Below, in pieces: positions 3,422 to 29,407 of a DNA stretch of 64,000 bases (positions are counted from its first letter, which is position 1; every line of letters begins with the position of its first letter). Both the position numbers and the translations under genes were made by a program. The DNA comes from Tissierellia bacterium. Lineage in GTDB: Bacteria; Bacillota; Clostridia; Tissierellales; Sedimentibacteraceae. Under the pieces are notes generated by a model. It was not told the DNA's origin. It saw nothing but the letters and a program-made list of their open reading frames with translations, and did not search any database. The DNA lies in contig JAQVWY010000006.1 in assembly GCA_028709465.1 (NCBI GenBank), forward strand, positions 4,536 to 68,535. Direction: 5' to 3'.

Positions 3422-4543
3422 ATGAAGTTTAAAATTAAATTTTTTACAACAATACTAATATTTATGGTAATAAGTTTCACAGGATGCTCATTAAATGATG
3501 ATTCTAAACCAATTATTGCACCAGTGAATAACGATGATATAACAAAAAATAATATTGAAGAAACTTCTGTAAATTTTCCAACAGAAGAGGAAATAGAAGA
3601 AAAAGAGGAGGTTCCTGCAAAGAATCCTTTAGAAGAAATTGATATGACATTGAATCCAAATGAAATGGGTGAAATTATGATTCTTATGTATCATGGTATT
3701 GCAGAAAAAGAAACTACATGGGAAAGAACACCTGAAAATTTTCGTAAAGATTTAGAATATATGTATCAAAATGGTTTCAGAATGATAAGTTTAAATGATT
3801 ATGCAAAAGGGATAATTAATACTGAAGCAGGATATACACCAATTATATTGACTTTTGATGATGGAAGGCAAAATAATTTTAATATAATTGAAAAAGAAAA
3901 CGGTGAAATTGAAATTGATCCTAATTGTGCTGTAGGAATATTAGAAGAATTTAAGGAAAAATATCCTGACCTTAATGTTACTGCTAGCTTTTTCTTAGGT
4001 ACTAATATTTTTGGACAAGAAAAATATAAGGAATACAAGCTTAAATTTTTAATTAATAATGGTTATGATATAGGAAATCACACCCACAGTCATAATAGAA
4101 TGGCTAATCAAAATAAGGATGAAATTATTTTTGAATTAGGATCTATAAATAATATAATTAATTCTTACTTACCAGATTATAAAGTTGAAACATTAGCTTT
4201 GCCAGAAGGAAGCAATCCAAAGGATGAATTTTTAAATGATGCCGTAGAAGGTGAGTTTGAAGGCAATGAATATAAGCATGTGGCGGTACTAGATGTAGGA
4301 TGGAGGCCTGCGTTTTCGCCTTTTGATACAGATAATGATTTTACTAATCTTTATCGTGTAACCGCTAGCGAAATCAATGTTGATGGATGCGGAATCACAG
4401 ATTATTTTAAACAATATTCTAATGGAAAAAGAAATATATTTATAAGCGATGGAAATCCCGATGTAGTTACATTTCCTAAAAAATTTGAAGAATATATTAA
4501 CATGGATATTGTAGGGGATAGAATATTAAATATATATGAATAG
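3422..4543 (+). CDS. Polysaccharide deacetylase (NodB-fold) lipoprotein
   Basis: Start moved to the ATG after aaggggga. Lipobox FTGCS. Canonical NodB motifs TFDDG and HTHSH. Confidence 0.75.
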   Translation: MKFKIKFFTTILIFMVISFTGCSLNDDSKPIIAPVNNDDITKNNIEETSVNFPTEEEIEEKEEVPAKNPLEEIDMTLNPNEMGEIMILMYHGIAEKETTWERTPENFRKDLEYMYQNGFRMISLNDYAKGIINTEAGYTPIILTFDDGRQNNFNIIEKENGEIEIDPNCAVGILEEFKEKYPDLNVTASFFLGTNIFGQEKYKEYKLKFLINNGYDIGNHTHSHNRMANQNKDEIIFELGSINNIINSYLPDYKVETLALPEGSNPKDEFLNDAVEGEFEGNEYKHVAVLDVGWRPAFSPFDTDNDFTNLYRVTASEINVDGCGITDYFKQYSNGKRNIFISDGNPDVVTFPKKFEEYINMDIVGDRILNIYE

Positions 4544-4558
4544 TGAGAGCACGAGCTT

Positions 4559-4614
4559 AATTCGTTGCCAATGACCTGCCACTAGGGCATCTTTTACTAT
4601 TGTTCAGTATGACA
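4559..4614. repeat. Intergenic repeat family, short variant lacking the internal hairpin module
   Basis: aattcgttgccaatgacc...agggcatcttttactattgttcagtatgaca aligns with both ends of the 23847 and 39691 copies. Confidence 0.65.
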
Positions 4615-4673
4615 GAAATTCTATGTTTATTTTTAAACGTATTAATTTGAAGTTTAAAATTGAGGTATAAATT

Positions 4674-26053: not shown

Positions 26054-26082
26054 TTGACTTTTTATTTAAAGTATTTTATAAT
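26054..26082 (+). promoter_or_regulatory. Candidate sigma-A promoter of the T-box leader
   Basis: ttgact, 17 nt spacer, tataat. Confidence 0.6.
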
Positions 26083-26104
26083 TTATTTTAAAAATACAAA
26101 AAGA

Positions 26105-26392
26105 ATATAAATGCAATGATGGAGACAATGATATCAATCTTTTTCACAGAGAGCTGGAAAATAGCTGAGACCCAGTAATAAGTAGATATGTAATATTCAC
26201 TCTAGAGCAAAGTCGTTAAAAGAAGGATCGAGTAGGCGAATTCGTTAAGCCCAACGTTAAAGGGGATAGGACTGTTAGGTCTGAATTAAGTGATGACTTT
26301 GTCATAATAAGGGTGGTACCGCGGATATAATCTTTCGTCCCTATAAATATAGCTTTTATAGCTATATTTATAGGGACGAAAGATTTTTTTTA
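26105..26392 (+). promoter_or_regulatory. T-box riboswitch leader (tRNA-sensing transcription attenuator)
   Basis: Stem I elements (aTGAtgg K-turn, AGAGAG, GCTGAGA, AGTA). T-box sequence aataagggtggtaccgcg at 26306-26323. Terminator with 25-bp perfect stem (26330-26354 / 26360-26384) plus a T run. Confidence 0.85.
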
Positions 26393-26485
26393 TATTCCAC
26401 GCTTGAAAGGAGGAAAGATAAATAAATTATATAAATTTAAAATTCATTAACTTATATATAACTAATTTAATTGGAGGATTATTTA

Positions 26486-26560
26486 ATGAAAAAGTTATTG
26501 ACAGAAAATGAAGCTGTTGCCAGGGGGATTTCATTTAGCAAATTAAATTTTATTATTTAA
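26486..26560 (+). pseudogene. 24-codon stub resembling the N-terminus of a 2-oxoacid:ferredoxin oxidoreductase alpha subunit (IorA-like)
   Basis: ggagga RBS 7 nt upstream. MKKLLTENEAVARG then unrelated residues and a stop. GNEA(V/I)ARGA is the usual N-terminal motif of the IorA/PorA family, recalled from memory. Confidence 0.4.
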
Positions 26561-26583
26561 AATTAATTAGGAGGTTGATCTTA

Positions 26584-27882
26584 TTGTATTGGAATGAAAA
26601 AGTTGAGACTATGTCTCATGAAGAATTAATATATATTCAAAATGAAAGATTAAAGGATATGGTGCATAGACTATATTACAATGTACCGTTTTATAGGAGC
26701 AAATTTCAAAATTTAGGGTTAGAACCAGAAGATATTAAAGGAATAGAAGATTTGTCTAAGTTACCCTTCACAACTAAACAGGATTTAAGGGATAATTATC
26801 CCTATGGAATATTTGCATCTCCTTTGTCGGAAATTGTAAGGATTCATGCATCATCAGGAACTACTGGCAAACCAACTGTAGTAGGATATACTAAAAAGGA
26901 CATAAATACATGGTCAGAATTATCTGCTAGAGCATTTGTAGCTGCTGATGCAGATCGTAATTCAGTAATTCAAATAGCTTATGGATATGGGTTATTTACA
27001 GGGGGGCTTGGTCTTCATTATGGGGCAGAAAAACTATGCGCATCTGTTATACCTATTTCCACTGGAAATACCCAACGTCAGATTATGCTTATGAAAGATT
27101 TAAAAACTTCACTAATTGCATGTACTCCTTCATATGCTATTTATTTAGCCGATTCAATTAAAGAGCAAGGCATATCATTAGAAGAGCTTAATTTAAAATC
27201 TGGAATTTTTGGAGCTGAGCCTTGGCCTGAAAATATGCGTAAAGAGATTGAGAAGAAATTAAATATTACAGCTCATGATATATATGGATTATCTGAAGTA
27301 ATGGGACCTGGTGTAGCAATAGAATGCAACTATAAATGCGGTATGCATATTTGGGAGGATCATTTTATACCTGAAATTGTAGATCCAAATACTTTGGAGC
27401 CTTTACCTTACGGAACTCTTGGAGAGTTGGTATTCACAACAATTACAAAAGAGGGTATGCCATTACTTAGATATAGAACGAGAGACCTTTCTATATTATA
27501 CAATGAAACATGCAAATGTGGAAGAACTCATATTCGAATGGAAAGAATAAAAGGAAGATCAGATGATATGCTGATTATTAGGGGAGTAAATATTTTTCCA
27601 TCTCAAATTGAAAATGCATTACTTGAAATTGGAGAAGTAGAGCCTCATTATCAACTAATTATCACGAGAGATGGAACATTAGATAATTTAGAAATTAAGG
27701 TAGAAGTTACTGAACATTTATTTTCAGATAAAATCAGTGGTTTAGAATCATTACAAAAAAATATTGCGAGAAAAATGGAATCAGCTTTACAATTGAGTGC
27801 AAAAATAACATTGGTAGAACCTAACAGTATTCCTAGATTTGAAGGAAAATCTAAAAGAGTAATTGATAAAAGAAATATATAG
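26584..27882 (+). CDS. paaK: Phenylacetate-CoA ligase
   Basis: MYWNEK..ETMS N-terminus and [12 protein letters not shown]-binding motif. Start moved to a TTG 9 nt after aggagg. Confidence 0.85.
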
Positions 27883-27890
27883 GAGGTATC

Positions 27891-28319
27891 ATGATGATTA
27901 AACAAGTATCGGTATTTTTGGAAAATAAAGTAGGCAGGTTAGAAAATATACTTGAAGTGTTATACCAATATGATATTAACTTGCGTTCTATATCTGTTGC
28001 AGAAACTACAGACTATGGAATTATTCGTTTGATTCTAGATAAACCAGAATTAGCTATTGAAAAATTAAAAGAAGCAGGATTTATGGTAAAGGAAACAAGA
28101 GTATTGGCATTGGAAATATCAGATATAACTGGATCTATGCTATCAGTAATAAAAGAATTATCTGCCAATGATATATCTGTTGAATATACTTATTCTAGTT
28201 TACCACTTCACGGAAATAATGTAATCATTATTATTAGGGTGGATGATAACGAAAAAGCTGTAGAGGTATTAAAAGAGAGCAAAAATGCAAAGTTGCTAAA
28301 TATTGAAGAATTAGTATAA
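27891..28319 (+). CDS. ACT domain-containing protein
   Basis: 142 aa, two ACT-like halves (VSVFLENKVGRL). Usual partner of paaK in anaerobes. Confidence 0.75.
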   Translation: MMIKQVSVFLENKVGRLENILEVLYQYDINLRSISVAETTDYGIIRLILDKPELAIEKLKEAGFMVKETRVLALEISDITGSMLSVIKELSANDISVEYTYSSLPLHGNNVIIIIRVDDNEKAVEVLKESKNAKLLNIEELV

Positions 28320-28540: not shown

Positions 28541-28714
28541 ATGAATATAAAAGAAATTGATAAAATAATAAATAATGTAAATGGCAATTTAGCTATAGAA
28601 GGTATGCCACTTACTGAACAGGATCGAGATAGGATTAAAGTTTGTTTATCTGGTAAAGTTGCTTTTAAAGATATGATAAAATGTCTTGTAGAAAAACATA
28701 CGAAGCAGGGTTAA
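28541..28714 (+). CDS. VbhA-like Fic antitoxin (57 aa, absent from ORF track)
   Basis: Hand translation: MNIKEIDKIINNVNGNLAIEGMPLTEQDRDRIKVCLSGKVAFKDMIKCLVEKHTKQG. The ..AIEG.. inhibitory-glutamate motif aligns with the VbhA (S/T)xxxEG motif. Stop is 3 nt before the fic start. Confidence 0.7.
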   Translation: MNIKEIDKIINNVNGNLAIEGMPLTEQDRDRIKVCLSGKVAFKDMIKCLVEKHTKQG

Positions 28715-28717
28715 TTT

Positions 28718-29407
28718 ATGGGCGATGATTATACTTATGGATTTGATTGGGATAACGAATATTGTTATCCCAATTCTGATATTTTGAAGAATAAATTTAA
28801 TATTAAAGATCAAAATAGTTTAAATGTTGCTGAAAGAGAGCTAACGTCATTGCGCCTTGCTGAAATAGAGGTAAATCAAATAAAAGGTGTTTTTGATTTA
28901 CAACATTTACAGGATATTCATAAATATATATTTCAAGATATTTACAACTGGGCGGGTGAGCTTCGTAAGGTTAATATTTCTAAAGTCAATGTTTTTTGTT
29001 ATTCAGAAAATATCATTAGCTATGGTAAATTACTTTTTCAGAAAATAAAAGAAGAAAATTATTTAATGTTTTTAGATGAGAATAATATTTACGAAAGATT
29101 ATCTTATTATATGAGTGAAATAAATGCACTGCACCCTTTTAGAGAGGGGAATGGAAGGGCACAAAGAGTATTTATTTCAAGTTTAGGAAAAACAGCAGGA
29201 TATGAAATAGATTTTAATCAGGTATCTAATAAAGAAATGATTGAAATTAGCTCTAGTGCTTTTACTAAAGGACATGAAGAATACATTAATATGTTTAAAA
29301 GAATAACGAGTAAAATATCTGTTGAGGAACAACTAATTCATATCAAGCTAATATCAAATCCTAATGGTCCTTTACTTAAATGTTACTATTCACAGTCGAA
29401 TTTTTAA
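28718..29407 (+). CDS. fic: Fic-family protein (class I, AMPylation-type motif)
   Basis: Canonical HPFREGNGRAQR motif. Confidence 0.85.
   Translation: MGDDYTYGFDWDNEYCYPNSDILKNKFNIKDQNSLNVAERELTSLRLAEIEVNQIKGVFDLQHLQDIHKYIFQDIYNWAGELRKVNISKVNVFCYSENIISYGKLLFQKIKEENYLMFLDENNIYERLSYYMSEINALHPFREGNGRAQRVFISSLGKTAGYEIDFNQVSNKEMIEISSSAFTKGHEEYINMFKRITSKISVEEQLIHIKLISNPNGPLLKCYYSQSNF

Follow-up and report, generated by a model that had tools for sequence, protein, structure and literature searches.

A T-box leader with a phenylalanine specifier codon in front of a PaaK-type arylacetate-CoA ligase gene and an ACT-domain gene in a Tissierellia bacterium

Introduction

What does it mean for the direction of a metabolic pathway when the gene for a PaaK-type arylacetate-CoA ligase stands behind a T-box leader that reads a phenylalanine (Phe) codon? 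T-box leaders turn genes on only when their tRNA is uncharged. In this study, we analysed a stretch of 64,000 nucleotides from a Tissierellia bacterium (assembly GCA_028709465.1, contig JAQVWY010000006.1, positions 4,536 to 68,535 of the forward strand), referred to below as the window, in which such a leader precedes paaK and a gene coding for a protein with a pair of ACT domains. With a probability of about 0.75, we consider the locus to be a canonical transcription-attenuating T-box for tRNA-Phe, which drives the conversion of phenylacetate to phenylalanine via PaaK and indolepyruvate:ferredoxin oxidoreductase (IOR). The arrangement suggests that, under a shortage of phenylalanine, this anaerobe makes the amino acid from scavenged phenylacetate.

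Which way bacterial IOR and PaaK loci run is disputed: they are seen either as degrading aromatic amino acids to arylacetates, compounds that matter in gut and host chemistry, or as rebuilding the amino acids from arylacetates (PMC13285125). For Bacteroides, the genes of IOR and of an AMP-forming arylacetate-CoA ligase have been described as colocalised, and IOR has been argued to be biosynthetic there, as it is in methanogens, while an involvement of IOR in the conversion of Phe to phenylacetate is mentioned as well (PMC13285125, 2026); neither T-boxes nor regulatory evidence are mentioned in that paper. Our literature search found no paper that links T-boxes with paaK or ior, although an earlier description in Vitreschak et al. 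2008 or in RegPrecise is possible, and Wels et al. 2008 (PMC2494555) and its supplements make no mention of paaK, phenylacetate or indolepyruvate.

Results

The whole 64-kb window was scanned against Rfam, and the sole match is to the T-box family RF00230, at 26107 to 26345 on the forward strand. The leader aligns over the full span of the model (positions 1 to 219) with an E value of 1.4e-23, and its score lies above the gathering score of 93 bits. A preliminary description of this DNA, made from the sequence alone, had proposed a complete T-box leader and had named a scan with this covariance model as a way of checking it, and the full-model match bears the proposal out. The K-turn, the AGAGAG and GCTGAGA elements, the T-box sequence and the terminator that it had listed were all recovered where it had placed them. 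The elements of the control region are as follows.

26054 to 26082, forward strand: sigma-70-type promoter, TTGACT, 17 nt, TATAAT; 11 of 12 consensus matches, the best site of the region
26107 to 26345, forward strand: full-length T-box leader; RF00230, 110.6 versus 93 bits
26113 to 26208, forward strand: Stem I, comprising the basal K-turn, specifier loop, AG bulge and distal loop; covariance-model alignment
26196 to 26198, forward strand: specifier codon UUC (Phe), followed by A at 26199; covariance-model alignment
26310 to 26342, forward strand: antiterminator with the T-box sequence, bulge UGGUACC at 26314 to 26320; fold of -10.5 kcal/mol
26329 to 26392, forward strand: intrinsic terminator with a perfect 26-bp stem, a 5-nt loop and a U run; fold and terminator scan

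The promoter lies about 25 nt 5' of the start of the T-box model. Within the leader the K-turn, Stems II, IIA/B and III and the T-box sequence all align to the RF00230 consensus. The AG bulge, cAGAGAG, occupies 26147 to 26153 and the distal loop, GCUGAGA, 26164 to 26170; the T-box sequence AGGGUGGUACCGCG is placed by the alignment at 26310 to 26323, and aagggtggtaccgcg is found at 26309 to 26323. The two arms of the terminator (26329 to 26354 and 26360 to 26385, with the U run after them) fold with -39.5 kcal/mol and a z score of -12.6, and none of 200 shuffled sequences folds equally well. As the 5' arm of the terminator holds the 3' strand of the antiterminator, the region 26334 to 26342 being common to both, the two structures are mutually exclusive. 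The UGGU bulge is complementary to the ACCA end of a tRNA, and the single tRNA-Phe(GAA) of the genome has an A as its discriminator base; since an A at position 73 is common to most tRNAs, this match does not discriminate between tRNAs. The perfect 26-bp stem of the terminator seems longer than those of usual intrinsic terminators.

The identity of the tRNA rests on the specifier codon. The preliminary description had folded the leader by hand and had read TTC-A at 26196 to 26199, directly before a helix in which ctcta (26200 to 26204) stands opposite tggag (26120 to 26124). The covariance-model alignment, which could have placed a different codon, agrees with this reading: it sets GUAAuaUUCACUCU against the consensus GAAa..uucaCCcu and puts UUC followed by A into the specifier position with high posterior probability. 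In all nine other leaders found 5' of a paaK-ACT gene pair, UUC stands at the same position of the model. When the ten Stem I sequences were aligned with MAFFT, only U-U-C was invariant; the preceding base is A or G and the following base A, C or U, the latter being a non-purine in six of the ten. Across the ten leaders, every one of the 60 cells in the two helices at the foot of Stem I is paired, with five of the six pairs changing on both sides, and sliding the 3' strand by one to three columns drops the pairing to 30-58%. As a control, the positional codon rule was applied to the 28 T-boxes of this genome; a codon could be read for 26 of them, the pheS-pheT leader gave UUC, and the other T-boxes gave sensible codons. 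By sequence, the leader in the window is of the Phe-specific class, with a Phe codon at the specifier position that is conserved among orthologous leaders.

To place the locus among its relatives, genome contigs were searched for paaK, which gave 80 loci from several phyla. An ACT homologue lies 3' of paaK in 78 of these, and iorAB stands directly 5' of the paaK-ACT pair in 57. The nine T-boxes in front of paaK-ACT (L042, L044, L045, L046, L047, L049, L067, L082 and L092) include two that score just below the RF00230 gathering score (L082, 90.8 bits; L092, 85.7 bits). The leaders with UUC span Tissierella (T. creatinini, L044; an uncultured Tissierella, L045), Sedimentibacter (S. acidaminivorans, L046; L047, labelled Sedimentibacter sp.), Peptococcaceae (L049) and other Bacillota, and come from at least five lineages. 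The leader and paaK locus of G005, a genome of the same genus (L128), match those of L047, and G005 is the genome of L047; the organism of the window may accordingly be a Sedimentibacter. Eight of the other genomes have the order T-box-paaK-ACT with no adjacent ior genes, and L045 has the order T-box(UUC)-iorA-iorB-paaK-ACT. The comparison of leaders in front of ior-paaK loci that had been suggested at the outset yielded UUC in nine orthologous leaders, one of which also precedes iorAB. Among 29 iorA loci of related genomes, none showed a T-box in the 1.5 kb 5' of the gene, and T-box control of ior itself is thus not general in the order. A T-box that lies 3.3 kb 5' of a paaK in L112 reads UCA and is separated from paaK by a gene on the opposite strand, so that it was rejected as unlinked. 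Between the T-box terminator and iorA, L045 also contains a repeated unit of about 100 nt with a run of N inside (4270-4620), which may be a repetitive element or may have arisen in the assembly.

Behind the leader lie a short open reading frame (ORF) and two genes.

26486 to 26560, forward strand: 24-codon ORF, the first 14 codons of which are a remnant of the iorA N-terminus; peptide and DNA similarity
26584 to 27882, forward strand: paaK, PaaK-type arylacetate-CoA ligase, 432 aa, TTG start; TIGR02155, PF14535, PDB 2Y27
27891 to 28319, forward strand: ACT-pair protein, 142 aa; PF19571 ACT_8

The pair of paaK and an ACT gene behind the leader had been recognized in the preliminary description and is confirmed here. 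The true start of paaK is most likely the TTG at 26584, judging from the predicted N-terminus, which fits the consensus of 25 orthologues. PaaK has the expected architecture of a short AMP-binding core and an AMP-binding_C_2 domain (PF14535, 117.9 bits), and its closest solved structures are PaaK enzymes of Burkholderia. It is similar over its full length to the PaaK structure 2Y27 (E value 5e-140 over residues 5-430) and also matches 4R1L (E value 9e-125). The ACT protein matches PF19571 over residues 1-131 with 94.3 bits (gathering score 23.5), so that both ACT repeats are covered, and its closest solved structure is an uncharacterised protein, PDB 2F06 (E value 2.7e-24). Both genes are intact and of full length and retain the residues that are invariant in the 25 orthologues. 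The ACT protein probably works as a partner of PaaK that senses a small molecule. When the two were predicted as a complex, the ipSAE score was 0.46, compared with 0.00 for the best of three controls; the runs agreed in at least 96% of contacts, and the pLDDT of the partner was at least 85. Of 80 solved complexes used for calibration, 58 passed the mark, as did 2 of 110 mismatched pairs; among those that passed, only 7 of the solved complexes, and both of the mismatches, scored at or below 0.60. As the prediction was made with alignments of our own, these counts are only a rough guide. A physical coupling of PaaK and the ACT protein might be indicated by this model, and we treat it as a lead and not as a result.

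No intact iorA or iorB is present at this locus, where a 14-codon iorA remnant (26486 to 26527) is all that is left. The ORF that begins with it lies 3' of the terminator and has a good ribosome-binding site. Its peptide MKKLLTENEAVARG agrees with IorA N-termini at 9-10 of 13 residues, and the 42 nt of the remnant are identical to the iorA start of L045 at 30 positions and to the genome's own iorA at 31, a level that was not attained by any of 200,000 42-mers drawn at random from the genome. Because the remnant stands at the matching place, the locus is best read as an operon of the L045 type minus iorAB. The preliminary description had thought of ior-paaK loci, and in this respect it does not hold: the ior genes are deleted here, and the single true IOR is encoded elsewhere, behind a tyrosine (Tyr) T-box. 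The idea that the 24-codon ORF ends in a piece of the IorB C-terminus was also considered and rejected, the resemblance being too weak and the DNA AT-rich and of low complexity. Further downstream, the stretch from the ACT gene to rimP-nusA holds a 57-aa ORF and, 3' of it, the gene of a 229-aa Fic-domain protein (28541-29407; PF02661; VbhT-like, E value 2e-50), which together look like a Fic toxin-antitoxin pair.

The genome (a draft of 166 contigs, 97% complete, 3.1 Mb, 29.5% G+C) contains further aromatic T-boxes. Those for Phe precede pheST, a TrpX-like ABC transporter and paaK-ACT, those for Tyr an ABC transporter, an NhaC-type carrier and, on contig C86, a FadD-like acyl-CoA ligase with iorA-iorB, and those for tryptophan (Trp) trpB and an ABC transporter. 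The C86 module (C86:14641-19100; L039 2642-7099) consists of T-box(UAC), the 554-aa FadD-like ligase, iorA and iorB, and its IorA is the one true IorA of the genome (755 bits, cut-off 651), with IorB alongside. Another IorA-like open frame, C20:7705-9345, scores 124 bits to IOR_alpha and contains a single TAG in frame; a broken gene, two separate genes or a distant paralogue of the 2-oxoacid oxidoreductases could each explain it. A FecCD permease 3' of iorB appears spread over two overlapping ORFs (150 aa and 292 aa) that each match PF01032 (L039 8424-9751), which may be due to a frameshift or a sequencing error. The Trp T-box on trpB (C1:5105-6603; L125) has no adjacent trp genes, an uncharacterised ORF and an M32 carboxypeptidase coming after trpB; this lone trpB could be used for indole salvage to tryptophan.

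Among the leaders compared, the closest to that of the window is the Phe leader of the ABC transporter on C88 (74-79% identity), followed by the Tissierella paaK leaders (70-74%). The Tyr leaders of the genome are in turn 78-85% alike to the C88 Phe leader, and the Phe and Tyr leaders on C88, C61, C115, C86 and C133 form a paralogous family of 69-85% identity in which the specifiers differ by one base. Since the Phe and Tyr leaders are so alike, their sequences suggest that leaders duplicate and then switch specifier by one base, from UAC to UUC.

Parallel modules were found in T. creatinini. There, T-box(UUC) precedes paaK-ACT, and about 6 kb away, pointing in the other direction, T-box(UGG) precedes iorA, iorB and a 411-aa PaaK-like ligase (G062:C22; L162 1-4000; L044 498-744, minus strand). 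In addition, T-box(UAC) precedes a ligase that is orthologous and 64% identical to the FadD-like ligase of C86, with another iorAB just 5' of it. On these modules, Phe, Tyr and Trp each have a switch of their own with the matching codon, set before an arylacetate ligase or IOR genes.

With regard to the rest of the pathway, the genome with the window has an aro operon with DAHP synthase, tyrA, aroB, aroA, aroC and aroE. A prephenate dehydratase was not found in the 97%-complete draft of 166 contigs, in a search that was positive in 14 of 14 control genomes, nor was the PaaA/PaaC family of the aerobic phenylacetate pathway found in this draft. A complementary distribution of paaK and prephenate dehydratase was looked for in 61 genomes of the order and was not seen (dehydratase in 22, paaK in 2).

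Discussion

We show here that a complete T-box leader with a UUC specifier codon stands in front of a PaaK-type ligase gene and an ACT gene, and that the codon is conserved in all nine orthologous leaders compared. From this arrangement we infer that read-through depends on the tRNA, what PaaK acts on, which way the pathway runs and what the ACT protein does. According to the model that we favour, transcription would begin at the promoter (26054 to 26082) and by default stop at the 26-bp terminator (26329 to 26392), before the genes. Uncharged tRNA-Phe(GAA) would pair through its anticodon with UUC in Stem I and through its free ACCA end with the UGGU bulge, which would stabilise the antiterminator and allow read-through into paaK and the ACT gene. 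PaaK would then activate imported phenylacetate to phenylacetyl-CoA, IOR, made from the other contig under its Tyr T-box, would reductively carboxylate this to phenylpyruvate, and an aminotransferase would convert phenylpyruvate to phenylalanine. Induction by uncharged tRNA fits a role in the supply of Phe. Of what the preliminary description had proposed, the Phe specificity is thus upheld by the alignment and by conservation, while the anabolic direction is inferred from the Tyr and Trp T-boxes on the sister modules, the missing PaaA/PaaC family, the missing prephenate dehydratase and the fit with the enzyme logic described for IOR (PMC13285125).

Several of our findings weigh against this model. 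The single true IOR sits under a Tyr T-box and not under a Phe T-box, so that Phe starvation alone may not induce the carboxylation step and may have to rely on basal IOR expression. PaaK scores 588.3 bits to TIGR02155, which is below the equivalog cut-off of 646.3; its substrate is therefore not certain, and we refer to it as a PaaK-type arylacetate-CoA ligase and not as a proven phenylacetate ligase. About 190 nt of AT-rich DNA separate the terminator from paaK, and an internal promoter may be located there. Within the genus paaK is rare, being found in 2 of the 37 genomes searched. Finally, the absence of a prephenate dehydratase rests on a draft in 166 contigs at 97% completeness, and the enzyme is kept by most of the other genomes with a Phe T-box on paaK-ACT (7 of 8 searched, plus G005), which makes it likely that the phenylacetate route is usually auxiliary. 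For the same reason we have dropped the claim that paaK generally replaces pheA.

Other explanations must be considered alongside this model. The tRNA sensed could be a different one if the specifier register were shifted to AUU (Ile) or UCA (Ser); the string AUAUUCAC of the window by itself permits neighbouring triplets, and the non-purine after the codon in most orthologues would be in line with such a shift. We give this only a very slight chance, as the bases flanking the invariant U-U-C vary, the helix that starts one base past the codon has compensatory changes and loses its pairing in the slid registers, and the covariance model is confident of UUC. If the Phe T-box is accepted, it could still be incidental to PaaK and ACT proteins that serve phenylacetate breakdown, detoxification or the formation of phenylacetyl-CoA for another product. 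PaaK is indeed best known from phenylacetate catabolism, which is also where its nearest structures, the Burkholderia enzymes, would point, and the IOR of Bacteroides thetaiotaomicron has been reported to take part in the conversion of Phe to phenylacetate (cited in PMC13285125). However, a T-box that switches on at uncharged tRNA fits supply and not disposal, the link to a matching codon recurs in 10 genomes, sister modules carry Tyr and Trp T-boxes, the PaaA/PaaC family was not found in the draft genome, and AMP-forming ligases favour thioester synthesis (PMC13285125); we therefore regard a non-biosynthetic role as highly unlikely.

It is less easy to set aside the view that the T-box is a real Phe T-box on a decaying relic, in which paaK-ACT has fed no working pathway since the loss of iorAB and the locus itself is being lost. 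That nothing but 14 iorA codons remain between leader and paaK, that paaK is so patchy in the genus and that the locus lies in a variable stretch beside the Fic-type toxin-antitoxin pair would all fit this view. Decay is nevertheless difficult to reconcile with two full-length genes that keep their invariant residues, with a leader that still scores 110.6 bits and has kept its promoter and terminator, with the stability of the same ior-less arrangement in eight other genomes and with the presence of a complete IOR in trans, and on balance we consider it unlikely. The biosynthetic model with a working Phe T-box remains the one that we prefer.

A wider version of this model can be put forward, although taken as a whole it is tentative and more doubtful than not. 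In this version prephenate dehydratase would be truly absent and the carboxylation of scavenged phenylacetate would be the only internal route to Phe; control would be split, the Phe T-box governing activation and the Tyr T-box carboxylation; the ACT protein would bind PaaK and act on it as a Phe-sensing brake; and anaerobic Bacillota that feed on fermentation products released by neighbouring organisms would have a general network for the salvage of arylacetates to aromatic amino acids, of which the matched T-boxes for Phe, Tyr and Trp would be the mark. If true, the ACT brake would add feedback at the protein level to control at the RNA level. Even on the narrower model, the finding that paaK has a Phe T-box and the sister modules have those for Tyr and Trp is regulatory evidence for the biosynthetic direction that is independent of enzymology, and cross-feeding on phenylacetate in amino-acid-fermenting communities is suggested. 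The T-box regulon is thereby widened to genes other than those for synthetases, transporters and classical biosynthesis.

The leader can be compared with T-boxes of well-understood function. The pheS-pheT T-box of this genome (C144:53724-54012) belongs to the same Rfam family, has a UUC specifier by the same rule and follows the same logic of terminator and antiterminator; it controls an aminoacyl-tRNA synthetase, whereas the leader in the window controls an arylacetate-CoA ligase and an ACT protein. The founding transcriptional T-box is that of Bacillus subtilis tyrS. It shares with the window leader a Stem I with K-turn, specifier loop, AG bulge and distal loop, Stems II and III, the UGGN bulge and the competing terminator and antiterminator; the window leader differs in its specifier (UUC instead of UAC), in the unusual length of its 26-bp terminator stem and in its type of target. 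On the protein side, the ACT fold is common to the ACT protein and the small subunit of acetolactate synthase, with weak matches to PF22629 (E value 4e-5) and NF008864 (E value 5e-4). Like that subunit, the ACT protein of the window is a small separate protein whose gene lies next to that of an amino-acid pathway enzyme, but it belongs to the ACT_8 pair family (PF19571). The Bacteroides loci in which IOR stands with an arylacetate-CoA ligase of the AMP-forming type, and the IOR that serves anabolism in methanogens, follow the same enzyme logic, which is proposed to lead to aromatic amino acids (PMC13285125); in contrast to the Bacteroides loci, the ior genes have been deleted in the window and the ligase stands alone behind the riboswitch. 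A known class of riboswitch gains a new member of its regulon here: the T-box itself is canonical, and what is new is the kind of gene that it regulates.

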